Shown piece by piece: positions 11,175 to 60,935 of a stretch of DNA of 64,000 nt. The notes under the pieces are model-generated. The model ran no database searches. It was given only the letters and a program-made list of their open reading frames with translations, and was not told the origin of the DNA. The stretch is from a phage. The translations under genes and the position numbers were made by a program. The stretch lies in assembly GCA_020619395.1 (NCBI GenBank), contig GCA_020619395.1_4860.1; one strand, given 5' to 3'. How positions within the stretch are numbered: position 1 is the stretch's first letter; each line of letters starts with the position of its first letter.

Positions 11175-12845
11175 TTAGTACAACACTGGTGCAGTTTTCT
11201 CACCATTGCTCAGAAGCAAGTAAGTGTGCTGCGGCAGCTGCATCAATACAATTGCATGTGGCACGTTTTCCTGCACTGCTTCGTAGATAGACACAACCGG
11301 GTCTGCGGTATTGCCCAGAGACGCTACCGTAACTACGTCATGTTTATCAACAGAATGGTACATGCCTGGAATCACGATGGTGAACTGGCTCTGAATCAGA
11401 TTAACCACCTTGCCAGAATCGCTCAGCTTGATAGTCAGTTTGCGCAGAGAGTTCGCCACCATCAGGAACAGGTCACGGAACCAGTCTTCATATTCACTTA
11501 CGCCGTTGTCGCCAGCGGTTGCAGTGAACAGATCTTTTACGAAGAAGTCGATATCGCTGATTTTCCGTTCGAAATCGATAGCTTTGAACTTCGGCACATC
11601 TTTACCACGCTTAGTGCCCAGCGACAGCGCGTTGTGTACCAGGAAAGTGATATTCGCCAGGTACGCATTAGCAAAGCGAGAAATTTCACTGATAACCACT
11701 TCTGCTTCGCTGCTGTTCGCAATCGCATAGTCGTGCAGTTCTTTCGTGTTCTTACGCAGCTCATCGATCGTACGTTTCACCTTAGCCATGATAGTTTCAA
11801 CATCTTCTACCAACGCCAAGTTGTCGAGATCGGATTTCAGTGCGTCGTGCTTAGCAACAAATTGCTTCATGCGTTCGCACATATCAGTGTTAACACCGAC
11901 CAGATACGCGCGATAACTATCCCGTGCACGCACAATCAGGTCAGCCCCGTCGTAGAAAACAACCTCTTCATTACCGTTAAAGATATCTTGCAACGGTGTA
12001 GCCCAATCACGCGTTTCCGCGTAAACAGATTGCTTAATGCGACTGTTAGCTTCCTTCGCTGGGATCGACATTTTAAGCTCGGGGGTTTTCAGCTCGTGAA
12101 GTGCGTAGTCTTCCATCAAATCAATCTCCTGCAGAATGTTGTTAATTGGGCCATTGGTAGTGTCCTTCTCGGTTTCTTCTGTTGCGCCGAGTGGGGAAAG
12201 CACTGGGTTATTAACTGTAGCATTAGACACCGGCATTGGTTGTACAGGCACCGGTGCTGGTTCAGGCTGGGGCTGTTGTGCTGGGGCTACTTGCGCCGGT
12301 TGTGGGTTCAGAATAGGATCACTGACCAGGTTAAGACCTGCACCGCCAGCAATCACGGTTAGTGCCGCATCTGTGTTACCAATCTTAACACCACCGGATG
12401 GCGCAGAAGACATAGTCAAGCCGTCAGTAACACGCACACCGCCAGAACTGTTACCGCCCAGTAACCCGCCTGCGTTGCTACCACCACCTAAACCACCACT
12501 GCCACCCAAACCGCCGGACTGCTGAGAACGAATTTCGGCAAGAATCTTACCGACTTGTTCCCAAGCATTAACCAGTTTGGTGTGACGATCGTCGTTATAC
12601 GCGTCGCCTGCGTTATGCACTTGCTGATAGGCAGCTGCTTTATACGCATCGACTGCATATGCGATAACCTGTGCTTCACTACCCCCTTTGGATGCTGCCC
12701 ATGCCGCAACATACGTCGCAATCTTTAACGCCTGATCTGGCGGAATGCTACGACTACGCATCACGTTATTCAACTGCGACAGTACCGCGTCCTGATCGAG
12801 GTGTTTAACGATGACGTTTTTGATTTGTTCAACAGTAATGCTCAT
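11175..12845 (-). CDS. hypothetical protein with internal Gly-rich and Pro/Gln-rich linkers
   Basis: AAGGAG ribosome-binding site; internal GGLGGSGGLGGGSNAGGLLGG and PQPAQVAPAQQPQPEPAPVPVQP low-complexity segments. Confidence 0.55.
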   Translation of the reverse strand: MSITVEQIKNVIVKHLDQDAVLSQLNNVMRSRSIPPDQALKIATYVAAWAASKGGSEAQVIAYAVDAYKAAAYQQVHNAGDAYNDDRHTKLVNAWEQVGKILAEIRSQQSGGLGGSGGLGGGSNAGGLLGGNSSGGVRVTDGLTMSSAPSGGVKIGNTDAALTVIAGGAGLNLVSDPILNPQPAQVAPAQQPQPEPAPVPVQPMPVSNATVNNPVLSPLGATEETEKDTTNGPINNILQEIDLMEDYALHELKTPELKMSIPAKEANSRIKQSVYAETRDWATPLQDIFNGNEEVVFYDGADLIVRARDSYRAYLVGVNTDMCERMKQFVAKHDALKSDLDNLALVEDVETIMAKVKRTIDELRKNTKELHDYAIANSSEAEVVISEISRFANAYLANITFLVHNALSLGTKRGKDVPKFKAIDFERKISDIDFFVKDLFTATAGDNGVSEYEDWFRDLFLMVANSLRKLTIKLSDSGKVVNLIQSQFTIVIPGMYHSVDKHDVVTVASLGNTADPVVSIYEAVQENVPHAIVLMQLPQHTYLLLSNGEKTAPVLY

Positions 12846-12876: not shown

Positions 12877-14655
12877 TTAGCGGCCGATTTTAGCAATGTC
12901 TTCTTCGGTCGGTCTGATGTACGGGTCCAGTTTAGGATTCCGCATCATTACCAAACTTGGGTTGGTCTTCATGTACGGGTTGAGGATGTTCGCCTTAAAC
13001 GGTGCCGACTTAGGAATATAATAGACGTTACCACATTCCAGATGCGACGCGGATGCGTGCTTAGTACGGTCGTTCAAGTTAACGGTCTTGCCTCCTTTCT
13101 TCGAACGCTTAGCATCGGTTTCGGTTTGACCGATGGCGTGCGTAGACACTGCCAATACCATTGATTCTGTAGAGGCATTGAAGAAACTGATACCGCCGTT
13201 GCTCGTAATGGTGCGCATCACCAGATTGAGCACGATCTGTTTGTTCAGTGCGTCTCGAATAGACTTTGCCGCTGTCTCTGGAGTCCGATGTTCCAACTGC
13301 CCCAGCTTCCAACGTATTTTCGAGATCGTTGTGGTAAAGCCACGTTGGCCCAACAGTAAGTAATCGGTTACCGTGAGACGTTTTCCGTACATAGACGGAA
13401 TATCATCTTGTTTGGTAAGACGAGTACGCACCATCAGCTGCGTGGTGTACCAGAGGAAATCAAACATATCCAAATCATCAGGGATGGACGGATCGTTTGC
13501 CATCAGCTCACCACGGAAGGTGCTGTTGACATAGCGTTCACATTCCTGGAAGTGGCTGTCCATACTGCGACTCAGTTCGATATCCGAAGGCTTCAGTCCG
13601 CGAATACTGCGGCCCAACACTTCACGCCAAGACGCTGCAGAGTTGAGGTTTGCAATATCTTCGTCCATTGCCATTTCATTAATCTGTGTAAACAGCCCCG
13701 GCAGTGTTGGTGCACGACCGTTCTTACTGTTCTGTTTACCTGCGTAATAGTGCGCCGCTTTGAAGAATGCGGCAGTCGCTACCAGCAACAGATGTTCGTT
13801 TTGATCCCAACGCCCTGCATCGGTGTTAGGCATATCTTCACGTTTAACCAACAGCACGTACTGGATGGTCTTCGCGAGTTGTGGCTCACCAGATTGAATC
13901 ACCACATACTTCGTTAAGTCCACATCACGTACTTTAATCGCTGGCCAAATCGTCACATCAACGCCCGCATAACGCTTCACGGCTTGTTTAAAGCCATAAC
14001 GCCCAAAGAGCCAATACATCAGTGGCTTCTCATCTGTGTCGTGTCCAATCTGTCCAGTGGAGACAAACAGATTCGATGTACCTGGCAAGAACAGCTGCTC
14101 AGGGCGACCATTCACCAGAATCTTCGTTGGTTTCTTACAGAACTTGATAGACACCTTGCGAGTGAAGTCAAAGTTAATAAAGATACCACCGTGCTCACGA
14201 CATATACCAGGTTGATGGATTACAGGTGCTACGTGGTACGTTGTACCATAGTAGTTCATTAAGCCGCCACGACGAATAAACGGCAGGCTCATTGGTCGTT
14301 GCACCGGGCGAGGATCGCCTGGAACTCGGAACGAGGCCATTACCATATACGTGTCAGTGGATGAGATGTTAATAATTGACCGGCCACGATTGTTTCGTGA
14401 ATTGTTATCCGACTTCGATAACTTAAAGATAAAAGCTTCAAACGGGGACATCTGACGGCAGCCTAACACCGTTAACCCTTCTGGTAATTTCGGGTTATCG
14501 ATTTCATCATACGTCAACTCACGACGTAGAATGGTTGCCACACGATCATGTATCCCGTCTTTAGCTTGTGTGTACCCAACTCCTTCTGCAATTGCACGAT
14601 TAAAAGGCACTATTTCGCCTGCCTCTTTAATCTTCCTAATCGCATCTTTAAACAC
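12877..14655 (-). CDS. multisubunit RNA polymerase beta-subunit homolog, N-terminal half (split rpoB-like)
   Basis: YGTTYHVAPVIHQPGI...FINFDF parallels E. coli RpoB NGTERVIVSQLHRSPGV...WLDFEFD; HASASHLECGNVYYIPKSAPFKANIL parallels [22 protein letters not shown]; protein ends where bacterial beta continues. GTG start with GGGAGG ribosome-binding site. Confidence 0.7.
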   Translation of the reverse strand: MFKDAIRKIKEAGEIVPFNRAIAEGVGYTQAKDGIHDRVATILRRELTYDEIDNPKLPEGLTVLGCRQMSPFEAFIFKLSKSDNNSRNNRGRSIINISSTDTYMVMASFRVPGDPRPVQRPMSLPFIRRGGLMNYYGTTYHVAPVIHQPGICREHGGIFINFDFTRKVSIKFCKKPTKILVNGRPEQLFLPGTSNLFVSTGQIGHDTDEKPLMYWLFGRYGFKQAVKRYAGVDVTIWPAIKVRDVDLTKYVVIQSGEPQLAKTIQYVLLVKREDMPNTDAGRWDQNEHLLLVATAAFFKAAHYYAGKQNSKNGRAPTLPGLFTQINEMAMDEDIANLNSAASWREVLGRSIRGLKPSDIELSRSMDSHFQECERYVNSTFRGELMANDPSIPDDLDMFDFLWYTTQLMVRTRLTKQDDIPSMYGKRLTVTDYLLLGQRGFTTTISKIRWKLGQLEHRTPETAAKSIRDALNKQIVLNLVMRTITSNGGISFFNASTESMVLAVSTHAIGQTETDAKRSKKGGKTVNLNDRTKHASASHLECGNVYYIPKSAPFKANILNPYMKTNPSLVMMRNPKLDPYIRPTEEDIAKIGR

Positions 14656-14666: not shown

Positions 14667-15671
14667 TCAGAGAATCATCCCAACGAGTGCTACCCCTGCA
14701 GCCAAATACGCGGGAATGGATTTCAAGAACTCCGAGCTATCTTTTCGCTGATAAGCTCGGGACTCGTATTGGTCTTTACGAACATCGGAACGCAACTTAA
14801 GCTCATTCGTCTGGATTGTGTTAAGGGTGTTAATCCTCTCCTTCTCTAGCGCCAGATTATTAAGTTGTGTACGATAATCGAGGTCTTGCCGATTCTTTTT
14901 CTCATCGAGATCTTGCAACTTGGCCTGATACGTGGCTTCCAGCTTCGCACGAACATCTCGCAACTCTGGAATGTTATCGAGCCACCGATAACGCCTCGCT
15001 TCATCTTCAGATGCAAACGCCCGGAACGGGGACATCGGGTCATCGAAAGAGTACATTATCATCTTACCCCCTTCGACGCACTCCGCACCACCGATTACCA
15101 TGTAAATACCCTCGTCGTAATATTTCGATCGAATCGGTTCGACTTCCAACATCGTTGTATAGAACCTCAGCCACTTTAAAGGTGCTGGGTCTTCGTACTT
15201 CTGTACAACTACCACGCCCAAGGCAAATTCTTTACGATCCCCTCCTGGCTTACCAATAACCTCAGAATCGAGTTTTACTGGTTGAGTAGAGAAAGCCATT
15301 CCTAGCTTCTTCAACACCACCAAGTCGCCTCGCATTAACGCACCGATATCATCAACTACATACATCAGCGTTGTTTCGCCGTTCGTAGTTAATTCCTTAC
15401 ATATCTGCGCATACTGCTTTGGCGAATGTGCGTCGCGCAAACCAGATAGGTTCGCACCGTTCGCAAACACCGTATAGGTCACGTAAATAACAATCCCAAA
15501 TTCCGCCGCTGTGGTGGACGACGGGGCTAAAACAAAATGCCCGCCACTGAGTTCAGTGACGTATATGGGAAACCCGGTATTATTTTCGTACGTGATAGTC
15601 TTCGACACGGCACCACGGTGCATGGGCCGCTGGGTTAGCGTTGGCTGAACGTCTAAATCATAACGGTTCAT
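14667..15671 (-). CDS. hypothetical protein with C-terminal hydrophobic anchor
   Basis: Track ORF starts with TTG at 15695; first ATG at 15669-15671; C-terminus IPAYLAAGVALVGMIL is hydrophobic. Confidence 0.5.
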   Translation of the reverse strand: MNRYDLDVQPTLTQRPMHRGAVSKTITYENNTGFPIYVTELSGGHFVLAPSSTTAAEFGIVIYVTYTVFANGANLSGLRDAHSPKQYAQICKELTTNGETTLMYVVDDIGALMRGDLVVLKKLGMAFSTQPVKLDSEVIGKPGGDRKEFALGVVVVQKYEDPAPLKWLRFYTTMLEVEPIRSKYYDEGIYMVIGGAECVEGGKMIMYSFDDPMSPFRAFASEDEARRYRWLDNIPELRDVRAKLEATYQAKLQDLDEKKNRQDLDYRTQLNNLALEKERINTLNTIQTNELKLRSDVRKDQYESRAYQRKDSSEFLKSIPAYLAAGVALVGMIL

Positions 15672-15704: not shown

Positions 15705-15730
15705 TCACGTAGATAATATCTATCTCAGAT
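15705..15730 (-). promoter_or_regulatory. conserved 26-nt AT-rich promoter-like motif (copy C)
   Basis: tcacgtagataatatctatctcagat, about 34 nt upstream of the minus-strand start; one of six copies of the same motif. Confidence 0.5.
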
Positions 15731-15776: not shown

Positions 15777-16475
15777 TTAGGGTATTAGGCGTTGGGCTAT
15801 TTCGCGGAGTTGGTCGCGGGTTAAATCAGCCAACTTCTGGTCGCCGAAGCCCAACTTCAGACCCAGCTCGTATCCAGCTTGCGGATACGTGTTCGTGTTT
15901 GCTACTGAGAGGAGTGCATCGGCTATCTTTACCATCGTTAACTCGAGAGACGCATACGGGGCGGGGATCGGCTGATTCACGATTTGGTAATTATAACGCA
16001 CTGCGGCGTTATCGTAGTCAAACTCCATCCTTCTGCCGAGAACGTTAAACGACTCCGCAGAATAACTACCAAGTGGGTGATTGGCTTTTTCCCACAAATC
16101 TTTCCGTTCAGTAAACCCAGTCGCGAAGTTCTGACGTATGGTGTCGAATATTTGCGTTGCCTGGCTAGGGTGTATATCTTTCAGCTCATTGTAGTCGTAG
16201 TCGGCGATGGAATATAGAGTGAACACAACACCGTTTATATTTAACTGCGGATAATCCATCCGCAAACTGTCATCACCTTGTAAATGAAGTTCCCACATCC
16301 TTACCCACTGCAATATCGCGCTTACCGCATCGTGACTGAGATAAAAATTAGTAGGTTCTTCAGGATTTTCACGGAAGAGAACGGAGCATTCCGAAACAAA
16401 AAAGCCGGCTGCCATAAATCCTCTGCCGTCGAACATAGGCGCAACTAATCTTGATTTTTCTAAATTGATTACCAT
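15777..16475 (-). CDS. hypothetical protein (232 aa)
   Basis: AAGGAG ribosome-binding site upstream of ATG at 16475. Confidence 0.55.
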   Translation of the reverse strand: MVINLEKSRLVAPMFDGRGFMAAGFFVSECSVLFRENPEEPTNFYLSHDAVSAILQWVRMWELHLQGDDSLRMDYPQLNINGVVFTLYSIADYDYNELKDIHPSQATQIFDTIRQNFATGFTERKDLWEKANHPLGSYSAESFNVLGRRMEFDYDNAAVRYNYQIVNQPIPAPYASLELTMVKIADALLSVANTNTYPQAGYELGLKLGFGDQKLADLTRDQLREIAQRLIP

Positions 16476-16511: not shown

Positions 16512-16538
16512 CCTAAGATAATATCTATCTATAAAATT
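16512..16538 (-). promoter_or_regulatory. conserved AT-rich promoter-like motif (copy D)
   Basis: tccctaagataatatctatctataaaat, about 37 nt upstream of ATG 16475 and just downstream of the terminator of the preceding operon. Confidence 0.5.
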
Positions 16539-16610: not shown

Positions 16611-18911
16611 TTAGCCGCCAGCGCCTTCACCGCCAGTACCTGGCTGGGTAGCACCGCCGCCAACATCACCAGCATTACCGCCGTCAGTACCATTAGTACC
16701 GTTGGAAGTAGTAGTGACGTTGAACGCCAGTTTCTCTTCCACGAACTTGGTGATACCTTTAATCCAGATCAGACCAGTGATCGGGCAGTGGCAGATGTGC
16801 GCGTTACGAGGCTGTACTGCCAGCTCTTTGCTGGTAGCGCCGTTACGCTGGATGTTGATGTTGGTTACCATGATCGGAGACCAGAAGTGGTTACCCCAGT
16901 TCAGAACACAGTAAGAACCATCATCAGCGGTTGGAACTTTCAGAACCCACTGCAGGCGACGAGTCCAGCTGCCGTCAGCTTCGTTCTTCACACGCCAGCG
17001 GTCATCGTTGGTGGTGATAACTTCGTACTCGTAGCGATCGCCCAGCAGACGCTGGTCGCCCTGAACCAGCAGCAGCATTGCAGCAGTCGGTTCGTCAGTT
17101 GCGATAACAACTTTCGGCAGCGCGTTCGGGTCCGCAGTCAGCAGGCGCAGAGCCGGCATGAAGCGAGAGTCCTGAATAGCACGAGTTACCTGGTCACCGA
17201 TACGCTGTACCAGACCCTGACGGGCGTTGATGAGCGCATCTTTGGTATCCAGAGACTGGATCACTTTGTCCACTTCGTAGTCGCTTTCGCTGTACCACGG
17301 AGCAACCCAGTGACGGCCCAGGCCGCGGATAGCAGGTTTGTCCCACGGAGTGATCATGGACGCAGCTGCGTTCTTAACCGCTTCGGTGTAAGACAGAGTC
17401 TGAGTAATAGCCAGCATTTCGTTACGGATGTTAACCGCAGAAACGAGGTCGTCCAGACGTTCGGTGTCGTCGTATTCAACGCCAACCGGAGATTTGGTCA
17501 TGATTGGAGAACCGTACTGCAGTTTGTAGTTCTCTTGTTCCCAAATCGGGTCGAGCAGAAGGCCCTGGGTTCTCCGGTTCTCGTTGGTACGAGTACCGTC
17601 GAAGCGCCAGCCCAGCAGCTCCAGTTTCAGGTTGTCGATGATGACTTTGCCGGTGCCGCTTTCGATATCAACAGCAGTACCAGTTGCGTCGTACAGACCT
17701 TCGATTTCCAGAGACGGTGCAGTCACGTCAACACGACCAGAGAACTGACCGTTGGTGAACAGAGACATGCTGATGTTCATGGAATAACGAATGGTGTAGT
17801 CGTTCTGTGCCAGAGCGGCCAGTGCCGGGATTTCAGCACCTTTCCAGTCCAGAGACTTGGCGTTCAGGGAGAACACGGTGCGACGGAACTGCAGGACCAG
17901 CTCACGGCCGTCACCTTCAGGAGGACGCTGGAAGGTAGCGAACTGCATGTCGCGTACGTTCAGTTTGATCAGTGCGCCATCTTTCGCTTCTTCGGTCGGC
18001 TTACGCACAGACAGCAGCAGGCTACCCAGCGCTGCACCCGGTGCGATTTCGTCGGTTTCGTCGTAACCTTCCTGCACGATACCCGGATGGGCAGACAGCT
18101 GGAACAGGTTCAGACGACGCTCAGAGAAGCTCAGGTAGTTGGTCGGATACGCCGGCACACGACCCAGCTGAACGTTTTCGTTTTCGATGATGTCTTCGGA
18201 TACGAAGAACTTCGCGTTCTCACCGGTTTCCATCACGTAAGGAACGATACGGATAGCATCGTCCTGCAGGACTTTGTGGTTAGACAGCGCGTTATGCAGC
18301 GGCTGACGGTTGTCTTCAACCACGTCTTTGGTCAGCAGGGCGTTCAGGATACCACGAGTTACAGTAGTAACTTTGGTACGAACGGTGATGCCGACGTCGT
18401 TGGTGTCCACAGTGATGGTCGGGAACAGGGTTTCTGCAAACTTGGATTGAGTTTCCAGAGCACGCACGTTCAGCGTCCAGGTCAGACCCAGGTTTTTGTC
18501 CAGGTCTTTGTTGGTGTAGTATTCGGTTGCGACCAGCGGAGTTTTACCGTAGTCAGCAGCCAGAGATGCTGCACCGGAAATAGCGATCGGCATGTAGCTG
18601 GCATATTCCGGCTTCGCGCTCTCAGCAGCAACACGGGTCATGAAGTCATCTTCGTGACCGGCAGCAGCCAGAATCATCGCAGAAGCAACCTGAGCAGCGT
18701 GGCTCATGGTTTTGCCAGGGTTTACAGCTTCGTAGTGCTGCTGAGCAGTGTCACGCAGGTTGGTGAAGCCGGCAGCATTTTTACGTACAGATTCGCCAAC
18801 GGCTACGGTTTGCCATACGTCATTAGCGGAAGAGCCTGCCTTGGCAGCAGCGACCAGAGCATTGCCCTGCTGAACCAGCTGGTCCAGACTAGCGATACGG
18901 GTATCTTTCAT
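16611..18911 (-). CDS. abundant structural protein, putative major capsid protein (766 aa)
   Basis: Size matches the roughly 750-aa major capsid proteins of phiKZ-like phages; strongly biased high-expression-like codon usage; strong terminator. Product call is by size and context only. Confidence 0.4.
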   Translation of the reverse strand: MKDTRIASLDQLVQQGNALVAAAKAGSSANDVWQTVAVGESVRKNAAGFTNLRDTAQQHYEAVNPGKTMSHAAQVASAMILAAAGHEDDFMTRVAAESAKPEYASYMPIAISGAASLAADYGKTPLVATEYYTNKDLDKNLGLTWTLNVRALETQSKFAETLFPTITVDTNDVGITVRTKVTTVTRGILNALLTKDVVEDNRQPLHNALSNHKVLQDDAIRIVPYVMETGENAKFFVSEDIIENENVQLGRVPAYPTNYLSFSERRLNLFQLSAHPGIVQEGYDETDEIAPGAALGSLLLSVRKPTEEAKDGALIKLNVRDMQFATFQRPPEGDGRELVLQFRRTVFSLNAKSLDWKGAEIPALAALAQNDYTIRYSMNISMSLFTNGQFSGRVDVTAPSLEIEGLYDATGTAVDIESGTGKVIIDNLKLELLGWRFDGTRTNENRRTQGLLLDPIWEQENYKLQYGSPIMTKSPVGVEYDDTERLDDLVSAVNIRNEMLAITQTLSYTEAVKNAAASMITPWDKPAIRGLGRHWVAPWYSESDYEVDKVIQSLDTKDALINARQGLVQRIGDQVTRAIQDSRFMPALRLLTADPNALPKVVIATDEPTAAMLLLVQGDQRLLGDRYEYEVITTNDDRWRVKNEADGSWTRRLQWVLKVPTADDGSYCVLNWGNHFWSPIMVTNINIQRNGATSKELAVQPRNAHICHCPITGLIWIKGITKFVEEKLAFNVTTTSNGTNGTDGGNAGDVGGGATQPGTGGEGAGG

Positions 18912-18923
18912 TTCAAGTTTACC

Positions 18924-19448
18924 TTATTTAGATAAATGACATGCGTACAACTGCGTCAGCACTTCGTGCGCAGCAAACTGCGTCGACGTACTGAACGTAT
19001 CATCCACGACACGAGTCTTGGGACGCATATATTTAAAAAGTTCTGCGCAGAACATCTTTTTCGCAGCGTGGTCTTCACTTAAAGAAAAACCCGGTCCGGA
19101 TTTAGCTTCTGCAAAAGACGCCACAACAACATCGCCACGTTGTGAGAACACCCAACGTAAACGACCGTCGAATGATTCCCCATATAAATCAGCAAGGGTT
19201 TCATTCGTACCTTTCTCAACCAGGTTTAAGACCTGGTCATAATAAAGAGTCGGAAGTGCAGGTGGTGCCATAATCGATTTATAAATCGAAATAGGGTCAC
19301 TCACTGGCAGTATGATGGAACTAAAGCCCGACGAGCAGTCATATAACCAGTTAAAGAAGCTTGCTTGGAGTTCCTCCAACTTTTTAACGCCAGCCCCTTT
19401 ATCTATGTTAGATTGAACTTCCCACGGTGGACTAAAACGAATTTGCAT
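18924..19448 (-). CDS. hypothetical protein
   Basis: Track ORF extends to 19502 and overlaps the divergent plus gene; first ATG (MQIRFSPPWEV...) is at 19448. Confidence 0.45.
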   Translation of the reverse strand: MQIRFSPPWEVQSNIDKGAGVKKLEELQASFFNWLYDCSSGFSSIILPVSDPISIYKSIMAPPALPTLYYDQVLNLVEKGTNETLADLYGESFDGRLRWVFSQRGDVVVASFAEAKSGPGFSLSEDHAAKKMFCAELFKYMRPKTRVVDDTFSTSTQFAAHEVLTQLYACHLSK

Positions 19449-23580: not shown

Positions 23581-23606
23581 TCACCTAGGTAATATATATC
23601 TGAAAT
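23581..23606 (-). promoter_or_regulatory. conserved AT-rich promoter-like motif (copy A)
   Basis: tcacctaggtaatatatatctgaaat; identical 26-mer also at 32085-32110; about 52 nt upstream of ATG 23529. Confidence 0.55.
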
Positions 23607-32084: not shown

Positions 32085-32110
32085 TCACCTAGGTAATATA
32101 TATCTGAAAT
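32085..32110 (-). promoter_or_regulatory. conserved AT-rich promoter-like motif (copy B)
   Basis: tcacctaggtaatatatatctgaaat, identical to copy A; between terminator 32144-32167 and ATG 32042. Confidence 0.55.
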
Positions 32111-48200: not shown

Positions 48201-49499
48201 TTAGGTGATGTGGAATTTAGGGATGTACTCTTTAACCACGGTTTCGCGACCGTGCATCGCACCCATTGCAGTGGTCATAACGTTCGAGAAGCCGGAAGAG
48301 ATATCCGCAGCGATTGCCCGTGGCTCTTCTGCTTTGTGTGCAGAGGCGCACGCCGCACAACAGTCTACGTGACCTTGCTGACATAAGATGGGTCGGCGGA
48401 GTCGAACAACTTTACCAAATTGTGTTTTCAAATACTCTTCGGTGAGTTGGGTAACTTTACCGTTAATCATCGCGTTCATGCCAACATAACGCTTGTAGTT
48501 ATACTGGTTAATTACAAGTGCATGTGTCAGTTTTGTCCCGCAATCACCAGGTACGATTTTGTGGTTCTGGAAGATCATCTGGATGATACGTACTTGCTCC
48601 CCGCCCTTGGCAGTTTCTGCACCACGCATGAAGGAACCTTCTCGCGTATCATTGAACTTCTCTACCAGATACTTCATCCCGGTCTGATCAACTTCCATCA
48701 GACTCGTTGGGATTAAGGTAAAATCTGCACCTTCTTTAAAAGCGGTCTGAATACCATACATCAGCATCAGCTTACGGCGACGCATACGCGCTTTAGGAGA
48801 GCTGTAGAACTCAACGGACTGGTCGCCACTCAACCACTCTTTATCAAGTTCGTCGAGAGCTTTTTCAATCATAACGATAACCGCAGGGTTATCCAGTTCG
48901 TCTTTGTGCTTCAACAGCAACGCATCTCGTACCTTATACGCGTCAGGATGCGTTGTAAGGCTTCTAATAGTTCCTGTTGGGGCAATCCCACGACACAACG
49001 GAGCAAGCTCGTGTAGACCCCCTACAAAGCGTCCTATCATGTACGGTCGAATCGCGTCTTCGTTGTCTGGATCGGTGTCATCATATTCCACACAACGCTC
49101 ATACATCTCTTTACGGTAGGCTAGCGGGTCACGAGACTCTGCCAGATACGGGAGACGGGTACCGAAAGCGTAGTAGATAGCAATCCAGTTAAAGACATAG
49201 CGACCCACGGTAGTCGGAATGGGACCAGCTAAACCTGGGTACATCTCAGGACGCAATTCAAACTGCTCTTCCGGCACGAACAGCTCTTCATCTTTTTTGC
49301 ACCCTTCAATCGGCACCCACTTGGTTTCTTCGTTTTCCCAGTAGTGGGGTAAGCCGTCAATATAGTTCAGGTCGTATTGCTCAGGCGGCTCACCTTTTTC
49401 ATTAAAGATAGCCACGTTGAAAACCGCAATACGCCACACCAGTCTACGCCAAGCTTCTGCTTTACACGCAGCAACCAGATAATCAATCTTGTTCATCAT
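48201..49499 (-). CDS. hypothetical protein (432 aa) with C-terminal Cys cluster
   Basis: ORF; C-terminal CQQGHVDCCAACASAH. Confidence 0.5.
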   Translation of the reverse strand: MMNKIDYLVAACKAEAWRRLVWRIAVFNVAIFNEKGEPPEQYDLNYIDGLPHYWENEETKWVPIEGCKKDEELFVPEEQFELRPEMYPGLAGPIPTTVGRYVFNWIAIYYAFGTRLPYLAESRDPLAYRKEMYERCVEYDDTDPDNEDAIRPYMIGRFVGGLHELAPLCRGIAPTGTIRSLTTHPDAYKVRDALLLKHKDELDNPAVIVMIEKALDELDKEWLSGDQSVEFYSSPKARMRRRKLMLMYGIQTAFKEGADFTLIPTSLMEVDQTGMKYLVEKFNDTREGSFMRGAETAKGGEQVRIIQMIFQNHKIVPGDCGTKLTHALVINQYNYKRYVGMNAMINGKVTQLTEEYLKTQFGKVVRLRRPILCQQGHVDCCAACASAHKAEEPRAIAADISSGFSNVMTTAMGAMHGRETVVKEYIPKFHIT

Positions 49500-53479: not shown

Positions 53480-53863
53480 TTAACTTGCATCGTGTGGAAC
53501 AGTCACCCAATCGTGCCATTTTTCAGAGTAAAGACGATAAGCCATCTTTGGATTCTGATCGACGCTGCCGGCCGGGTTCTCATTCCACAACACGTACGTA
53601 TATAACTCGTACGACGAAGTGTTACGGATACTTGACGTGCGGGTGACGTAGTACGTCAACCCGCGTTGGTTAAGGAACAGGCCGCTGTAATGTTCAGTGA
53701 CCATGTAGTAGTGAAACGCCTGGTTGATAGTGGCGTCGGTGCAGAGTTTCTTAGCGACGTCTTCTACGCCGGGATACGCCTTTAGAATGTTTTCGAGAAA
53801 ACTTGCTAAAGTCATTCCGATGTAGGGTGGCAGCGGCTCTGCTGGACGCGGCGGAGTGAGCAT
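53480..53863 (-). CDS. hypothetical protein (possibly spurious or shorter)
   Basis: Track ORF overlaps the 3' end of the helicase gene by 113 nt; true extent uncertain. Confidence 0.3.
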   Translation of the reverse strand: MLTPPRPAEPLPPYIGMTLASFLENILKAYPGVEDVAKKLCTDATINQAFHYYMVTEHYSGLFLNQRGLTYYVTRTSSIRNTSSYELYTYVLWNENPAGSVDQNPKMAYRLYSEKWHDWVTVPHDAS

Positions 53864-56495
53864 GTGATTTCCTTACAACGTAGGGGGATGTCGCGATACG
53901 GAACGACAATACGACATCCTTGAGTGATTTCTGGCGGGCATTCAGGTAATTGCAATGCTTCGGTACGTTATACGCATGGAATAACCACACCGTTGGGTCT
54001 ATTTCACCCCACTCGTTGTGGAGAATCTTACGTGGACGACCGGCCATCTGTTCGTTCAGTTGCTGGTCTTCTACCGGGGTTGAGATGTACATGTGCACCA
54101 ACCCAGGTTTATCGACCGCAGTCCCCGCTTTCCCCGGTGTGGAGATAGAGAAGTCTGCTTGGATAAAGTCGTCATACGAATCGCCTGCATTATATTTCGC
54201 CACCATGAGTGGATGGAATACAGGGTCACGCGATAACTTATCTTTCACATACTCGGTAAAGAACTCACACATTGCAACCGTAGCAAATAGCAGCAAACAC
54301 TTCTGGCCGGGTTGATACCGTTTAAGGAACGATTTCTCAACCACATCCCAGATCATGTTCGCGTATTCTAAATGCAAGTTCTCTTTAATCAGCTTCCCTT
54401 CGAAGAGTTTGTGGTTATACGGCGTCATCTTCGACGCCCACCACGCGAACTTCTTATCATCCAGTCGATAGTACAACGCTTTCACGTCAACCACCGGAAT
54501 GATTGGAATACTGATTCGGTACTCCATTGGGAAGCGTTCTAAATACCGCTCCGCGATAAAGGCTTTACTGCTACCCGGTTTAAGAGTTGCAGACATCTCT
54601 ATCGATGCCGGCGGGTTCAACATTATACCAGCCATGTAAACGAGGTGAAAATGCTCGTGCACCTCATCCATCGCCACCAGACCCACACCCAGAACATCAT
54701 AAAACGTATCCAGGTCCACAGGGTTAGTCGCAGCAGTGTTAATGTACTCCTTCAGGAAACGCTGTAGAGAGACCGTGGGGAGGATTATTACCTTAATACC
54801 GCGTCTATCTAGCTCTCCCGACTTACCCATCTCCAGCGCGTCGTAAATCGCCTGTACGCCTGTACAAACTAACACCTCGTCACGAAGTATACGAAGTCCT
54901 GTTTCATCATCACAGACGTCAAACAGCCATTTGGGAACGTATGACGGACGGTGAATCAATGCGGTACGGGTTCCCCGTTTAACCATCGACTTCATACAGG
55001 TCTTGGTGTTGTGCGTAACGATCCACTTGTCCACCACAAACAACGCATCGTCGTTCTCGACACGAATACACGTGGCAAGATCACGACCAATGGGTTCGAT
55101 AGACTTAACACGGAGTTTCAGTATATCGGTGTATTGTCCGTTATCACGACACAGTTCTTTCTTCCTTGGAAGATGGAACAGTTTCGATGGTGTTTTGTGG
55201 CGGATGGAGACGTTATAAGCCAAACGACCTTCACGACGTTCGCCGTTGTGTGTGAAGAACGGACGTTTCTCGCGTAGTGTTGCAATCCCTCCTAAAGACC
55301 GCACAAGTTCCTGAACACCTAAAGCCAATTCTTTACTGGTGGAACAGAAAGAAGGCGTACCACCATCCTTATCCACAGTACCGTCAGTATCCATCAAGCC
55401 ACGCAACAACTCCCACCGTTGTTCGATGGACGTTTCGAAGTAATCTCCAGGTATGAACTTTTCCCAAGACCTGCAGCCAATTAACCCTAACCGCTCAAGC
55501 TCTCTGCGGACAAGGTTAACACCGCCGGGACAAGAGATGCACTTCGTTATCCCATCGCTGTACGATGAATCATGGATTGCATGTCCAGCGGGCATGACCT
55601 CAGCAACACGGTCACGAATCTCCACATCGCCTTTGGTGTATAAAACACCAGGCATCGATAGGGAGCCATCACCCAAGAGGATACCGAGTAAATACGGATG
55701 AATGACAAAATCCTTAGCTGGCTTTTCCTCTGGTTCTGGTAATGGGATGTATACCCGTGGATTAGGCATCGAAATTAAACGTTTCATCTCTAGGGTATCA
55801 CGTACACCCCAGCGACGATTCTCGGTGGTATTAACGTAGTAGCTTTGCCACAAGTGCTCGCCACATACGTCAACACTCCTACCATCCCAAAACGTCACCT
55901 GATACAGGTCAACCACACCCTGTGGGAACACTCCAGAGACCATTGCTGGTTTTCCGTCACGCCCCGTAACGTAATCACCTAGCTGTATATCCTCAATGTT
56001 CTTCCAACCACCCGGTACACGCACACGCGTACCATGCGCGAGAGCTTTTCCTCTTCCTGTTTGTATCGCGAAAACCGTTTGTGAGCGCGATGGATCTGTT
56101 GCGGCGGCTACGACTTCATTCTGATAATAGAAACGCGACTCTGGGTCTGTCTCTTCCATCTTGAATCCGTAATTATCAAACGTGCACTTATAAGGTGTTC
56201 CTCGTACAGGACGGTGCTCTGTTAGCTTGTACTGAAAAGCGTATTCAATTGCTGCTCGTTGGAGGATATGTTTAATCTTCTCAGCGAACACTTTATGGAA
56301 AATGAACGTCCTTAAAGACGGAATGTGGGCGTAGTACGCGTCACCGCGTTCCGTGGTTATTCGTCCATGTTGCTTGCCCATCTTTGGGGCGTGCATATTC
56401 TCTTCGGCCCACGCGAGTATGGCCCTTTCAGCCTGGCGGATAGGGACTTCAACCCGTACCCCCATACTCGTGTAAGTCATTTGAATTTCTACCAT
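53751..56495 (-). CDS. SF2 DExH-box helicase interrupted by an intein
   Basis: Extein motifs: Walker A AIQTGRGK|T (split by the intein), Walker B LVAMDEVHE, motif III SAT, motif VI QMAGRPRK; basic RRRRRR C-terminus. Start set at ATG 56495 because the longer track ORF runs through terminator 56520-56538. Confidence 0.8.
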   Translation of the reverse strand: MVEIQMTYTSMGVRVEVPIRQAERAILAWAEENMHAPKMGKQHGRITTERGDAYYAHIPSLRTFIFHKVFAEKIKHILQRAAIEYAFQYKLTEHRPVRGTPYKCTFDNYGFKMEETDPESRFYYQNEVVAAATDPSRSQTVFAIQTGRGKALAHGTRVRVPGGWKNIEDIQLGDYVTGRDGKPAMVSGVFPQGVVDLYQVTFWDGRSVDVCGEHLWQSYYVNTTENRRWGVRDTLEMKRLISMPNPRVYIPLPEPEEKPAKDFVIHPYLLGILLGDGSLSMPGVLYTKGDVEIRDRVAEVMPAGHAIHDSSYSDGITKCISCPGGVNLVRRELERLGLIGCRSWEKFIPGDYFETSIEQRWELLRGLMDTDGTVDKDGGTPSFCSTSKELALGVQELVRSLGGIATLREKRPFFTHNGERREGRLAYNVSIRHKTPSKLFHLPRKKELCRDNGQYTDILKLRVKSIEPIGRDLATCIRVENDDALFVVDKWIVTHNTKTCMKSMVKRGTRTALIHRPSYVPKWLFDVCDDETGLRILRDEVLVCTGVQAIYDALEMGKSGELDRRGIKVIILPTVSLQRFLKEYINTAATNPVDLDTFYDVLGVGLVAMDEVHEHFHLVYMAGIMLNPPASIEMSATLKPGSSKAFIAERYLERFPMEYRISIPIIPVVDVKALYYRLDDKKFAWWASKMTPYNHKLFEGKLIKENLHLEYANMIWDVVEKSFLKRYQPGQKCLLLFATVAMCEFFTEYVKDKLSRDPVFHPLMVAKYNAGDSYDDFIQADFSISTPGKAGTAVDKPGLVHMYISTPVEDQQLNEQMAGRPRKILHNEWGEIDPTVWLFHAYNVPKHCNYLNARQKSLKDVVLSFRIATSPYVVRKSHAHSAASSRAAATLHRNDFSKFSRKHSKGVSRRRRRR
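55008..56045 (-). mobile_element. class-3 (WCT-type) intein with LAGLIDADG homing-endonuclease domain, 346 aa
   Basis: Block A ALAHGTRVRV...QLGDYV (Ala at position 1); block B GEHLW; LAGLIDADG motifs LLGILLGDGS and LLRGLMDTDGTVD; block F ATCIRVENDD; block G WIVTHN followed by +1 Thr. Confidence 0.8.
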
Positions 56496-56541: not shown

Positions 56542-58647
56542 TTACAACTCAATTACCACAGCGGCTCCTAGGTCATCGTACAACGATGCCGGGATTTTGT
56601 ACTCGGTATAAAAACCAACGCGATCGATATTCCCCTGCTGTCCTTCAAACAACAACATCGGAATTGCCGAGCGCAAACTAATGAGCGTGTTGTGATCGAC
56701 AAACCGTTTCCCGGTGGCATTAGTAGAATCCTCACTGTCAAATCCTACTGCCGGGAACGGATTGGTTGGTGACTCTACACGAGATATCGCCAACATAATC
56801 GCAATGTGCGTCATCGGTATACCGCTCAGCTTACGCTGGATGTACTTAAACGTATCCATCAACGCATAAGTACACTGTTTCTCTGTAGCACCACCCATTT
56901 CAACCAACGTTACCGGTTTCACACGACCTTGTTTCTTGTTCAACTTCACAGTCGAGGCTGTGTTGATGATTTCCACAATGTCTTCGTTCTTATCGGCTGC
57001 GATTGAACGTAGCTTGGTTTCTAACCCTGCCACGAATTCTGCCATCGATTCAGAACGGTTGGTGTAGACCAGTACCGGGTGTTTCGGGTTCCATCCTTTC
57101 AAAGGAATCTGAACCGTCTTCTTCTCGATACGAATGTTCGCACGTTGTTTCAAGAAGTAATGCAAGAACGGTTTAGAGAAGTTCCCACAAACACCCATTC
57201 GCACATCGATAGAATCTGCAGCGATGATTTGCCCATCTTCTAAACGACGCTGGAATGTCAAGTCGGTGATTTCCGGCAATGCTGTTTCATCGATTGCATC
57301 GAGATCTTCATGATACGCAATCTGGCTCAGCTCCGAATAAACTTTGTCGGTAACGACCAACTCGTATTCTGACCAATTACCACGCTGTGGTTTTGGTAGC
57401 AAGCACAACCCTTTCAGAGAGTTATGTTTGTATTCGGTCATGTACTCACGCATTCTCGGCGTGAGTACCAGGTTGAGCAGATAACGCAAGAAGTCAAGGT
57501 GCTTGGTAGAGAGAATTCCCTGTGTACCCTTTTCCGAGATGGACGTGGACGCCAGGTGACCTGGTGACGTACCTTCAGAGAGGTTATAAATCAAATCCCC
57601 CATACAGGTCGCACAGATGGACTGATTCGCCATCTCTTTACAGGTCATGGCACTACGGAAGACCAGCGGTTTGCCAACCAGGTCTGCGTATCCGCCTTTC
57701 TCAAATCTCAACCACGGACCATTATCACCTTCTAAACGATAACGCATCCCCACCATCGCTTTATAGGCACGCTCATCCAGCTGCGTATCCTTAAACGTGT
57801 AGCGGTGTGCGTGAGTTGTACCGCAGTCGTCGTACGTGAAATACATCAGTACGTTTGCTGCCAACTGCAGTTTACGTGAGGCGTATTCTGCTTCGGCAAT
57901 CTTGTCAGTGTTGTACAAGTGGGAACGTGAAGTTGCACCGGATTCTTTCAAACGCGAAATAACCGAGTGCATTCCGGTAAAGAAGCCTTCCCACACCTGA
58001 TTGGTGTATACACGTGAGTCAATTTCTGACGTTTTACCACGCACGAAGGCTTGCAGTACCTGGTTCATCTTCACAGTACCGTCCAGTACCGACATCACGA
58101 CCGGGTTATACCGTAGCGCAGGGTCTTTGAAGATTTTCTCGATAAGCTTGTACGCTTCTTCAACCATATCCCGACCATCTTCATCGTAGCCAGTAGGATA
58201 TTGCACTTCCCACTGACGGATGAGTTCGAAGTTCGGATGGTCGTAGATCTCCATCATCGTATCAAAGTCGATTGTCGTACAATAGGACAGCAAGTTCTTC
58301 ACTGTCATGTTGAACGCATCGGCGTAGACATGTTGACTCAGGATATAACGCGTTTCAGCAAGGTCGACGCCTGCTTTACGGGCCAGTACCGCTGCTTCCG
58401 ACATAAAGTCCAGATGCAGGTCATCTGTTGCTACCTGACCTGGACGATACGCCATGGTCGATGGAGTGGGCACCTGCGGATACAGACGCGACACACCCCA
58501 ATACGGCCAGCTGAGTTTGATGTGGCGACTAGACATTTCCAACGACTTACCATCGTCGAATGTCACGTAATAACGCCCGCGTAGTTTCCACACCTGATCA
58601 GAGTTAAGCATACGCAAATCACGTACGTGTACAGAACGACCCGCCAT
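56542..58647 (-). CDS. multisubunit RNA polymerase beta-prime homolog, C-terminal part
   Basis: LMYFTYDDCGTTHA parallels E. coli RpoC LVVTEDDCGTHEG; FRSAMTCKEMANQSICATCMG...ASTSISEKGTQ parallels VRSVVSCDTDFGVCAHCYG...AAQSIGEPGTQ (trigger-loop region). Confidence 0.7.
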   Translation of the reverse strand: MAGRSVHVRDLRMLNSDQVWKLRGRYYVTFDDGKSLEMSSRHIKLSWPYWGVSRLYPQVPTPSTMAYRPGQVATDDLHLDFMSEAAVLARKAGVDLAETRYILSQHVYADAFNMTVKNLLSYCTTIDFDTMMEIYDHPNFELIRQWEVQYPTGYDEDGRDMVEEAYKLIEKIFKDPALRYNPVVMSVLDGTVKMNQVLQAFVRGKTSEIDSRVYTNQVWEGFFTGMHSVISRLKESGATSRSHLYNTDKIAEAEYASRKLQLAANVLMYFTYDDCGTTHAHRYTFKDTQLDERAYKAMVGMRYRLEGDNGPWLRFEKGGYADLVGKPLVFRSAMTCKEMANQSICATCMGDLIYNLSEGTSPGHLASTSISEKGTQGILSTKHLDFLRYLLNLVLTPRMREYMTEYKHNSLKGLCLLPKPQRGNWSEYELVVTDKVYSELSQIAYHEDLDAIDETALPEITDLTFQRRLEDGQIIAADSIDVRMGVCGNFSKPFLHYFLKQRANIRIEKKTVQIPLKGWNPKHPVLVYTNRSESMAEFVAGLETKLRSIAADKNEDIVEIINTASTVKLNKKQGRVKPVTLVEMGGATEKQCTYALMDTFKYIQRKLSGIPMTHIAIMLAISRVESPTNPFPAVGFDSEDSTNATGKRFVDHNTLISLRSAIPMLLFEGQQGNIDRVGFYTEYKIPASLYDDLGAAVVIEL

Positions 58648-60884
58648 TATTTATCCTCCCGAATTGGACGCACTAATTCAAAACCTTCACAGCGATGGAT
58701 GTTACGTATCATCCTGTCAATCTGCGAATCTCCCATTGGCAGTTTCTTACGATCGACCAGCACCCCCGGATTGGTTGGTGTTGGCGAGTTATACAGCCCC
58801 GTTACGATCGCACGGTGTACCGCAGGGTTATTAGCGCGGTCATGAGTTTCGGGGAAGTTGCCCGGACCAAAGCCGTCGGTAAGACGCTGCTCGGAAGGAC
58901 CACCCCACTTCAACCCTTTCAGGTTAATCGGATATGAACCACGTCCTTGGTTGGATGCATCAATACAACCCAAATAGTTCGTGTACATCGACGAGATACT
59001 GGAGAACTCACGACCGGTTTTATCCAGGCGCAGAGTCTCTACCATGCCGACGTAGAACTGGTTCTTCGTCCACTCTTTCTCACCCTGATAGTTAGTAATC
59101 AGTAGCTTAGACTTGCGTGGTGCATACTCGCCTAGAGCACGGCAGATTTCTACCTGGGTGGCATTCAATTCGTGGGGAAGCCAGATACGAATCGTGAAGT
59201 CGTAAATCTCTTTAAAGAGTTCCAGACGTGACTCAGTATCTGGGTGACTGGCATTGAGATAGAATGTCCAGCGTGGGTTATAGCGATCGATATAGTCCAT
59301 CAGGATTTCCCAGGCTTCATCAACCTGGTTGGCAGCAAGTAATGGTTTCAACCGCATCTTCAACTGCTCGGATGCAGCAGACCAATACATGTGGAACAGC
59401 GCAGCATAAGTCGAACGACGAATTACGGCGTTCATGGAACGAATGACATGCACACGTTCTCCGAACTCGTTAATCGGCATTTCTTCATCAGGCCGCACTG
59501 CACCCACGATACCTTTTGTACCTGAACGGTCGGTGATTTTCGATGAGACGGTAACTGGGATTGGATAACGTACCACGATGCGTATCGTGTAACTACCAAT
59601 TGGGTCCCAGAGACCACGCTGAACCGGCTGCGCCAGTTTGTTTAACACGTTCTTATCAGCAGAACGGTTATACTCGCCTTTGCGCATGGCTTCATCGTAT
59701 TCACGACCAATCTCTTCACGGAAGTCGTTATAGACTTCATACGTCTCAGAACAGAACGCCTTGTCAAGAATCTCAAACGCTTTCGGTGACCAGACAATAT
59801 TCTTGTCCTTGGACATCGCAAAATAGAACCGCACGATATCATTGTAAAAACGTTTCAAAGCGTTCGCGTAGTGATCTAACTCGCGTTTGTTCTCTTCGGT
59901 ACATGCGATATTGTTAACACCACGATCGCATTTGGTTTCGTCCCGCCATACCTGAATATCAACGACACGAGAACCAGTACGTTCCATCTTTTCAAAGTCG
60001 CCAGCCTGACGCGCTTTGTAATGCTCAGGGTCAGCATCAACATACTCACAACGGTCGAAGTGCGGAGAGATATGTTGTGTTTCACCTACGTGCGAGTCAA
60101 TGGCTGCCCATAGCTTATCGAAACGGCGCGCGGCAATAACCAACCCATCATCACGAATTGCCTGTCCTTTATTGGGCAGGTACTGTGGTCGACGAACGCC
60201 ATCAATACCCGTTGTCCCATACGTATCAAGCAGGTACTCGTCGTCGCGCAAGGTAAAGTCGATTGCACGCAAACCATAAGCGTGCATCGCTTTCGCTGCA
60301 GTTTCGGAGATGGTGTACGAGTCCTCGATAATGTCCGGGTGCGACATTGTCACAGTGTGCAGGTTGACCCCATCGACAAACTCACCGTCTTTCTGTGCCG
60401 GCAGTACGGTAAGCATTTCATCTTTTTCCAGGTGCTGCGTCTGCCCGCGCAGCAACGCCTGAAGTTTCCCAGTAGCCTCTTTCTTAGACGAGAAAATGTT
60501 ATCGTGGTTGGTGTAATACTTAATATCGATTACATCAATCATCACTTTGCGCTGGTTGGTTAAATCTGCGCGCGTGAAGAAGATAACATGCTGGAGCGGT
60601 TCGTGATCCCCTTCACGACCATAGCGTGCAAAAACAGCTGCACGAGTAACACCTTCTTTGGTTGTGTAACTGCACACGGTACCACTGTCTTCCACGATAT
60701 CGTTAAAACAATAATCGTGGTAGTTCACATCAGCGCCGGTAAAATGGATAGTCGGATCTGGATTGTCCAGTGGTACCGCCGACTTCATATGTCCACCCAC
60801 CATTGAGGCACGTGCCCCAGATACGCCAGTGATATTCACCTCACGGTCAGCAACGCTTGACATGAGTTCGACTGGTGTTTTCAT
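58647..60884 (-). CDS. multisubunit RNA polymerase beta homolog, C-terminal half
   Basis: DIIEDSYTISE parallels YNFEDSILVSE; SRVVDIQVWRDE parallels GTVIDVQVFTRD; ITDRSGTKGIVGAVRPDEEMP parallels [26 protein letters not shown] parallels VPSRMN. Confidence 0.8.
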   Translation of the reverse strand: MKTPVELMSSVADREVNITGVSGARASMVGGHMKSAVPLDNPDPTIHFTGADVNYHDYCFNDIVEDSGTVCSYTTKEGVTRAAVFARYGREGDHEPLQHVIFFTRADLTNQRKVMIDVIDIKYYTNHDNIFSSKKEATGKLQALLRGQTQHLEKDEMLTVLPAQKDGEFVDGVNLHTVTMSHPDIIEDSYTISETAAKAMHAYGLRAIDFTLRDDEYLLDTYGTTGIDGVRRPQYLPNKGQAIRDDGLVIAARRFDKLWAAIDSHVGETQHISPHFDRCEYVDADPEHYKARQAGDFEKMERTGSRVVDIQVWRDETKCDRGVNNIACTEENKRELDHYANALKRFYNDIVRFYFAMSKDKNIVWSPKAFEILDKAFCSETYEVYNDFREEIGREYDEAMRKGEYNRSADKNVLNKLAQPVQRGLWDPIGSYTIRIVVRYPIPVTVSSKITDRSGTKGIVGAVRPDEEMPINEFGERVHVIRSMNAVIRRSTYAALFHMYWSAASEQLKMRLKPLLAANQVDEAWEILMDYIDRYNPRWTFYLNASHPDTESRLELFKEIYDFTIRIWLPHELNATQVEICRALGEYAPRKSKLLITNYQGEKEWTKNQFYVGMVETLRLDKTGREFSSISSMYTNYLGCIDASNQGRGSYPINLKGLKWGGPSEQRLTDGFGPGNFPETHDRANNPAVHRAIVTGLYNSPTPTNPGVLVDRKKLPMGDSQIDRMIRNIHRCEGFELVRPIREDK

Positions 60885-60907: not shown

Positions 60908-60935
60908 CTCGGTAAGATAATATCTATCTGTTTTA
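60908..60935 (-). promoter_or_regulatory. conserved AT-rich promoter-like motif (copy E)
   Basis: tcggtaagataatatctatctgttttat about 24 nt upstream of the beta-fragment start; sits in a divergent intergenic region. Confidence 0.5.

Follow-up and report, generated by a model that had tools for sequence, protein, structure and literature searches.

Split RNA polymerase genes 42 kb apart in a Salmonella jumbo phage encode parts of one non-virion polymerase

Do fragments of an RNA polymerase β subunit whose genes lie some 42 kb apart in a phage genome belong to one enzyme, or to the two different polymerases that phiKZ-related jumbo phages carry? The window analyzed here, the whole stretch of 64,000 nucleotides, contains three open reading frames (ORFs) that a preliminary description had singled out as a β N-terminal (β-N), a β C-terminal (β-C) and a β′ C-terminal (β′-C) fragment. 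Their coordinates (12877-14655, 58647-60884, and 56542-58647, all on the minus strand) and their spacing were exact, with a distance of ~41.9 kb between positions 14655 and 56542. Read as its reverse complement, the window corresponds to ~25.9 to 88.4 kb of an SPN3US-like Salmonella jumbo phage (genus Seoulvirus, phiKZ-related). Over the RNA polymerase genes, DNA identity to SPN3US was 97.9 to 98.2%, and the best DNA record over the same genes was Salmonella phage 1252 (98.9 to 99.2%). At the protein level, β-N, β-C, and β′-C were 99.8 to 99.9% identical to SPN3US gp77, gp34, and gp35, respectively. We regard it as almost certain that this phage is SPN3US-like and that, of the five subunits of its non-virion RNA polymerase (nvRNAP), three are the products of these ORFs. 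The statement that such phages possess two multisubunit polymerases, one in the virion and one non-virion, agrees with the literature (PMC7598289, PMC5694885). Scans of the window for tRNAs and Rfam families both came back empty.

The ORF at 12877-14655 (minus strand) encodes the N-terminal polypeptide of the nvRNAP β-like subunit (592 amino acids [aa]), orthologous to SPN3US gp77 and phiKZ gp123. A ribosome-binding site, GGGAGG, precedes its GTG start by 5 nt, and the ORF belongs to phrog_2943 in PHROGs ("polymerase"; 1.2e-187). Its best sequence match in the PDB was PHIKZ123 (7ogp_E; 3.1e-20), and E values against phiKZ gp123 ranged from 1e-18 to 3e-20 across searches. Even homologs with as little as 39% identity are 585 to 598 aa long, and 74 alignment columns are invariant. 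Pfam returned nothing at an E value of ≤1. A profile of 23 β-N sequences searched against the PDB reached phiKZ gp123 at 2e-41 and no other RNA polymerase chain, the next matches being chance glucuronidases at an E value of ~0.6; sequence profiles therefore do not bridge β-N to bacterial RpoB. In fold comparison, the predicted model of β-N was similar to the β1/β2 lobes of bacterial β as well as to the β-N chains of the AR9 and phiKZ nvRNAPs, and it matched the protrusion and lobe of solved β/Rpb2 N-terminal domains, at moderate model confidence (pLDDT, 69.5) and with residues 484 to 561 disordered.

The C-terminal polypeptide of the same β-like subunit (745 aa; 58647-60884, minus strand) is the ortholog of SPN3US gp34, with 99.9% amino acid identity, and of phiKZ gp71-73. 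It was assigned to phrog_3295 ("RNA polymerase beta subunit"; 1.6e-268) and matched PHIKZ071 (7ogp_C; 2.2e-29) and an AR9 chain (7s00_C; 1.6e-08) in the PDB, with weak matches to bacterial β chains (E values, 0.007 to 0.009). The two conserved lysines of the double-psi β-barrel (DPBB) are present as K449 and K457 within KITDRSGTKG. K449 aligns to K386 of gp71-73, and K457, which keeps the same 8-residue spacing as K386-K394, falls opposite the final residue of RefSeq gp71, whose sequence is cut short by the intron. The gene is continuous here, whereas in phiKZ the ORF of gp72 sits between gp71 and gp73 and breaks gene 71-73 right at the conserved G-x-K-G site; a tblastn search against phiKZ matched both exons.

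The adjoining gene (56542-58647, minus strand), whose ATG overlaps the β-C stop codon (TAATG), encodes the C-terminal polypeptide of the nvRNAP β′-like subunit (701 aa), orthologous to SPN3US gp35 (99.9% amino acid identity) and phiKZ gp74. It falls in phrog_3015 (1.1e-240), and its best PDB match was PHIKZ074 (7ogp_D; 8.9e-39) over residues 8 to 548. Mapping from the structural features described for gp74 (PMC8287921) placed the bridge-helix region at residues ~229 to 266 and the trigger-helix region at ~360 to 378. The Zn-binding cysteines C275, C336, C345, and C348 align to C288, C341, C350, and C353 of gp74. By tblastn against phiKZ, β′-C found gp74 at 4.6e-41 and, weakly, the paralogous gp80 (~1.6e-04 to 8.5e-04).

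These matches to PHROGs and to chains of 7ogp, much stronger than chance would give, bear out the proposal of phiKZ-like split β and β′ fragments. The further statement that the ORFs carry the conserved blocks of bacterial RpoB and RpoC held in part, and the Rpb2/Rpb1 profile check suggested for it gave mixed results. β-C passed Pfam Rpb2_6, marginally (24.4 bits against a cut-off of 23.4; 2e-05), and reached bacterial β chains; β′-C stayed below the threshold of Rpb1_5 (17 bits against 28.5; E value, 0.004); and β-N had no profile match, so that an Rpb1/Rpb2 profile test by itself would wrongly reject it. Because the PHROGs, PDB, and fold searches were decisive, we did not take the Pfam misses as refutation.

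The suggestion that β-N and β-C might derive from different polymerases did not hold. If the β-N gene were part of the virion enzyme, separate from the β-C/β′-C pair, this would fit the 42-kb distance between them and the existence of two polymerases in such phages (PMC7598289), but several observations make it very improbable. For each of the three proteins, the top match among solved structures was one chain of the phiKZ nvRNAP, and comparison with virion (phiKZ gp178, gp149, gp180, gp80, and gp176; SPN3US gp241, gp218, gp240, gp42, and gp244) and non-virion subunits identified all three as non-virion, corresponding to gp123, gp71/73, and gp74. β-N matched gp123 and not the β-N of the virion polymerase (vRNAP), phiKZ gp178, at an E value of ≤1e-2. 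When the three ORFs were searched by tblastn against 150 kb of phiKZ, gp178, gp149, gp180, and gp176 were unmatched. Neither β-N nor β-C had vRNAP matches, and homology that identifies a vRNAP subunit was found only for a fourth ORF at 48201-49499. The phiKZ gp123 gene is likewise distant from genes 71 to 74, and the neighborhoods are alike: around β-N, the order DnaB(-), head protein, major capsid protein, a further gene, β-N, and another gene is that of phiKZ, as is the order gp68-like, gp69-position, gp70-like, β-C, β′-C, helicase and, further along, gp79-position and gp80-like around the pair. The gp69 position is occupied by the ortholog of SPN3US gp31, an ORF cut off by the end of the window; its equivalence to phiKZ gp69 is positional only, with no similarity by BLAST or phmmer. 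Furthermore, the vRNAP β-N of SPN3US is a 159-kDa virion protein, gp241, whose gene is located elsewhere, and Thomas et al. (2016) explicitly name SPN3US gene 77 as the nvRNAP β N-terminal fragment and gp35 as the nvRNAP β′ C terminus (PMC5105663). We give still less credence to the idea that the three ORFs are decayed pseudogene remnants of captured bacterial rpoB/rpoC without a working enzyme, to which their very weak similarity to cellular RNA polymerase (RNAP) might point, as the frames are full length and equal in length to those of SPN3US, β-N homologs are constant in length with many invariant columns, neither the catalytic lysines nor the Zn cysteines have been lost, the genes retain their ribosome-binding sites and translational coupling, and the phiKZ orthologs form an active enzyme with a solved structure (PMC8287921).

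Taking the three ORFs as nvRNAP genes, their products are probably made during infection and not packaged, as in the SPN3US and phiKZ literature. By analogy with phiKZ, the injected virion polymerase would transcribe the nvRNAP genes early, after which five polypeptides would come together without α or ω as an enzyme whose active center is of the usual two-barrel kind. In the assembled nvRNAP, β-C would contribute the conserved lysines, and β′-C would bring in the Zn finger together with the bridge helix and trigger loop; the DNA channel would be closed by the lobe and protrusion of β-N. Transcription of the middle and late phage genes by this enzyme would then need no host polymerase.

The fourth RNA polymerase ORF (48201-49499, minus strand) was missed by the preliminary description, which named three. 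It encodes a 432-aa vRNAP β′ middle fragment, orthologous to SPN3US gp42 (99.5% amino acid identity) and phiKZ gp80 (1.4e-39), assigned to phrog_2962 (1.3e-175) with a cross-match to phrog_3015; a Cys4 module is common to this protein and the nvRNAP β′-C. The vRNAP subunits of SPN3US are gps 42, 218, 240, 241, and 244, and the assignment of the virion protein gp42 among them is vRNAP β′ M (PMC5694885). By homology, this gene is the sole virion-polymerase gene in the window and part of the other, virion-packaged enzyme.

As the preliminary description had it, no β′ N-terminal fragment of the NADFDGD type is in the window: the motif D[FYW..]D[GAS]D was absent in all six frames, and tblastn of the window with SPN3US gp23 and phiKZ gp55, gp180, and gp178 gave no match. 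A search of the window for gp68-, gp149-, and gp176-like genes found none. In SPN3US, the β′ N-terminal subunit is gp23, which contains ANGDFDGDQF and matches phiKZ gp55 at 1.4e-41; its gene, at 17704-19299 of SPN3US, lies beyond the position of the window end (~25.9 kb). The sigma-like fifth subunit, SPN3US gp30 (2.6e-12 to gp68), ends ~400 nt beyond the 3′ end of the window. From these near-identical relatives, we infer that gp23-like and gp30-like genes probably lie just past the 3′ end of the window in the present genome.

Gene order and lengths of SPN3US genes 77, 34, and 35 (JN641803/NC_027402) are identical to those here, and the GTG start and the TAATG overlap region of β-C and β′-C are as in the window. 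SPN3US differs in the neighborhood only. The helicase gene downstream of β′-C contains a 346-aa intein in the window and none in SPN3US, and in place of the 332-nt gap that separates the major capsid gene from gp76 in SPN3US, the window has a 232-aa ORF. The phiKZ nvRNAP (gp55, gp68, gp71-73, gp74, and gp123; PDB 7OGP, 7OGR, 8QUE, and 9RJS) has the same split of β and β′ into N- and C-terminal polypeptides and shares genomic neighborhoods, conserved lysines, Zn cysteines, and the bridge/trigger region with the window genes, at an amino acid identity of just 22 to 27%. Far more distant is the nvRNAP of Bacillus phage AR9 (PDB 7S00, 7S01, 7UM0, and 7UM1), with 12 to 13% identity in structural alignment; AR9 has a uracil-containing genome, and its promoters are recognized in the template strand (PMC7598289). 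Similarity to the large subunits of cellular RNAPs (bacterial β/β′ and naturally split forms such as cyanobacterial rpoC1/rpoC2 and archaeal B′/B″) is near or below detection. No α or ω partners would be expected here by analogy with phiKZ (PMC8287921), and where cellular subunits are split the half-genes lie side by side, in contrast to the 42 kb between the β halves in the window.

The finding is right, but it was known before from published SPN3US and phiKZ work, and it adds nothing to those publications on the biology of the nvRNAP. Its use lies in annotation: 12877-14655, 58647-60884, and 56542-58647 can be labeled nvRNAP β-N, β-C, and β′-C, and 48201-49499 can be labeled vRNAP β′ M, at a time when many deposited relatives still read "hypothetical protein," "polymerase," "alpha subunit," or plain "beta subunit." Since Pfam-type profiles alone miss β-N completely, jumbo-phage ORFs without a profile match need to be checked against PHROGs, against the PDB, or at the level of the fold.

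The β-N gene sits between the orthologs of gp76 (14667-15671, minus strand; phrog_7286), directly upstream in a presumed operon, and gp78 (11175-12845, minus strand; phrog_8185), directly downstream. The latter is a 556-aa protein with a Gly-rich tract and 99.1% amino acid identity to SPN3US gp78. In SPN3US, the gp78 gene is essential; the 78(am3) mutant yields no detectable virion proteins, and a regulatory role has been suggested (PMC5105663). Intergenic distances of just 11 nt and 31 nt suggest that gp76, β-N (gp77), and gp78 are cotranscribed as one operon.

An AT-rich 15-mer, AGATAGATATTATCT, occurs as an exact copy at 60915-60929 (minus strand), ~31 nt upstream of the β-C start codon, as a candidate early (vRNAP-type) promoter of the β-C/β′-C operon. 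The same 15-nt motif recurs at 15711-15725 (minus strand), ~40 nt upstream of the ATG of the gp76 ortholog, as a candidate promoter for gp76, β-N, and gp78. The motif (consensus AGATA[G/T]ATATTA[T/C]CT) precedes all four nvRNAP transcription units, two in the window and those of gp22-gp23 and gp30 in SPN3US. Judging from these positions, we lean slightly toward reading it as a Seoulvirus early promoter that is recognized by the injected virion polymerase and marks every nvRNAP unit. If so, the virion polymerase would directly license the making of the nvRNAP. We found no published Seoulvirus promoter consensus in the accessible literature text. To our knowledge, all such phages already have predicted early-promoter motifs of this type, so that the promoter reading, even if true, would be incremental. 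Duplicated copies of the 15-nt motif are also found on both sides of a variable gene cassette next to the capsid gene.

The window belongs to the SPN3US group of Salmonella jumbo phages (genus Seoulvirus): megablast matched it to 40 to 51 phage records at up to 99% identity, among them SPN3US (97.9 to 98.2%), whose ~25.9- to 88.4-kb region in reverse complement corresponds to the window. GC content is uniform throughout (0.46 to 0.52). The three open reading frames proposed as RNA polymerase fragments lie on the minus strand at exactly the positions originally claimed: beta-N at 12877-14655 (592 aa, GTG start), beta-C at 58647-60884 (745 aa) and beta-prime-C at 56542-58647 (701 aa). Plus-strand ORFs overlapping them are shadow frames. 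Their products share 99.8%, 99.9% and 99.9% identity with SPN3US gp77, gp34 and gp35, respectively, and a 242.5-kb metagenomic contig encodes a protein identical to beta-N.

The Pfam searches proposed in the preliminary description gave a mixed outcome: beta-C exceeded the cut-off for Rpb2 domain 6 (24.4 bits against 23.4), beta-prime-C matched Rpb1 domain 5 below threshold (17 bits against 28.5) and beta-N had no Pfam match. The core reading in that description, of split RNA polymerase fragments, was correct. All three gave end-to-end matches (1e-187 to 1e-268) to PHROG families labeled as polymerase or RNA polymerase beta subunit, and the closest solved structure of each is a different chain of the phiKZ non-virion RNA polymerase (nvRNAP): 7ogp_E (gp123; 3.1e-20) for beta-N, 7ogp_C (gp71-73; 2.2e-29) for beta-C and 7ogp_D (gp74; 8.9e-39) for beta-prime-C. 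beta-C also matches the AR9 nvRNAP and bacterial beta chains. Phage-specific and structure-linked evidence thus identifies the three ORFs unambiguously as RNA polymerase fragments. A profile built from 23 homologous beta-N sequences (identity as low as 39%) reached gp123 alone (2e-41). In Foldseek, the AlphaFold model built on this alignment (pLDDT 69.5, pTM 0.61) matched phiKZ gp123 (6.8e-16) and AR9 beta-N (6.3e-11); beta-N is therefore the lobe/protrusion half of beta, a relationship visible at the fold level only.

Alignment of beta-C and beta-prime-C to phiKZ gp71-73 and gp74, with features mapped from the cryo-EM study (PMC8287921), placed counterparts of the bridge helix and the first trigger helix in beta-prime-C at ~229-266 and ~360-378, respectively, and all four zinc cysteines are kept (C275, C336, C345 and C348). 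In beta-C, the double-psi beta-barrel (DPBB) lysines K449 and K457 are retained within KITDRSGTKG. phiKZ gene 71-73 (phiKZ 63275-66595) is split into gp71 and gp73 with ORF gp72 in between, and the break falls precisely on the conserved G-x-K-G lysine motif in the beta DPBB, whereas beta-C (58647-60884) is continuous.

phiKZ-related phages encode two multisubunit polymerases: a virion enzyme (vRNAP), injected to transcribe early genes, and the nvRNAP, produced during infection to transcribe late and probably middle genes (PMC7598289, PMC5105663). The possibility, raised in the preliminary description, that beta-N and the far-off beta-C are parts of two separate polymerases is unsupported, since all three ORFs match nvRNAP subunits, gene order agrees with that of phiKZ, and Thomas et al. 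(PMC5105663) named SPN3US gene 77 as the nvRNAP beta N-terminal fragment and assigned gp35 to the C-terminus of nvRNAP beta-prime. In the phiKZ comparison, the only match outside the nvRNAP was a weak, paralogous one from beta-prime-C to gp80; none of the three ORFs matched gp178, gp149, gp180 or gp176. In both phages, beta-N follows a DnaB gene (-), a small head gene, the major capsid gene and one further gene, while beta-C and beta-prime-C have genes in the gp68, gp69 and gp70 positions upstream and a helicase downstream. The 42 kb separating beta-N from beta-C and beta-prime-C is the conserved gene layout of one enzyme.

The sole vRNAP gene within the window, which the preliminary description missed, lies at 48201-49499 (-). 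Its 432-aa product is 99.5% identical to SPN3US gp42, matches phiKZ gp80 (1.4e-39) and phrog_2962 (1.3e-175), and shares a Cys4 module with beta-prime-C. Present in SPN3US virions, gp42 has been assigned as the vRNAP beta-prime middle fragment and is lost from particles upon knockout of other vRNAP subunits (PMC5694885). The absence of an NADFDGD-bearing beta-prime N-terminal fragment was rightly noted: the window holds neither a DxDGD motif nor gp23-, gp55-, gp180- or gp178-like sequence. SPN3US encodes nvRNAP beta-prime-N as gp23 (with ANGDFDGDQF; 1.4e-41 to phiKZ gp55) and a sigma-like fifth subunit as gp30 (2.6e-12 to gp68); both positions fall just past the 3' end of the window, gp30 ending ~400 nt beyond it.

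By analogy with phiKZ and AR9, homology being what was tested here, the five nvRNAP polypeptides would assemble without alpha or omega. beta-C and beta-prime-N would form the two-barrel catalytic center, beta-prime-C would supply the bridge helix, trigger loop and zinc finger, and beta-N the DNA-channel lobes; the gp68-like subunit may be required for assembly and promoter binding, as in phiKZ (PMC8287921). The phiKZ nvRNAP is already assembled when it is imported into the phage nucleus (bioRxiv 10.64898/2026.09.21.753271). As the three genes are orthologs, at 99.8 to 99.9% protein identity, of genes assigned in the SPN3US literature, and the enzyme class is structurally solved, the finding is already known.

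beta-N begins at a GTG with a GGGAGG site 5 nt upstream; 11 nt separate it from the preceding gp76 ortholog and 31 nt from the following gp78 ortholog, a spacing which suggests a three-gene operon. The beta-C stop overlaps the beta-prime-C start (TAATG) with a GGGAGG site upstream, suggesting translational coupling. The gp78 (11175-12845, -) and gp32 (61312-62679, -) orthologs, each adjoining an nvRNAP gene, contain low-complexity stretches rich in Gly (GGLGGSGGLGGG... and ...GGLGGLGGGSSSS, respectively). In SPN3US, gp78 is essential, with a suggested regulatory role (PMC5105663). The gp32 ortholog is weakly similar to phiKZ gp70 (1.75e-11). Beside it, the gp31 ortholog (62695-63999, -; phrog_3141) is cut by the window end, its C-terminal 435 aa lying inside; this gene occupies the phiKZ gp69 position between gp68-like and gp70-like genes, and sequence similarity to gp69 was not detected.

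A 15-nt AT-rich motif occurs five times on the minus strand (15711-15725, 16516-16530, 23587-23601, 32091-32105 and 60915-60929), three times exactly as AGATAGATATTATCT and twice as the variant AGATATATATTACCT; allowing up to three mismatches, seven matches were observed against 1.2 expected by chance. It is confined to intergenic gaps, on the coding strand upstream of minus-strand genes, 30 to 60 nt ahead of ribosome-binding sites, and some copies directly follow hairpin-plus-T-run terminators. One copy precedes beta-C and another the gp76/beta-N/gp78 unit; in SPN3US, further copies lie ahead of gp30 and, in a form with one mismatch, ahead of the gp22-gp23 unit, so that every nvRNAP transcription unit has the motif. 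According to a review (PMC7598289), every jumbo phage that encodes RNAPs has an AT-rich early-promoter motif of ~10 nt, located near -10 and recognized by the vRNAP, and phiKZ nvRNAP genes are described as early (PMC8287921). We therefore propose the motif as a candidate early promoter, through which the injected vRNAP could switch on nvRNAP synthesis.

A 232-aa ORF (15777-16475, -) separates the gp76 ortholog from the major capsid gene (16611-18911) and, with an exact motif copy on either side, resembles a variable cassette. Of 39 related records, 26 contain it, while SPN3US and several relatives lack it and have a 332-nt gap instead; in two further records the stretch is equally long and mostly non-matching. 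Just downstream of beta-prime-C, the helicase gene (53751-56495, -) carries an insert (55008-56045) encoding a 346-aa LAGLIDADG/Hint intein, with Ala1 first, HN at its end and Thr at +1, located in the Walker A loop between GRGK and TKT. SPN3US and most relatives are without this intein; it occurs in 5 of 40 related records, two of which call the helicase gene "terminase large subunit."
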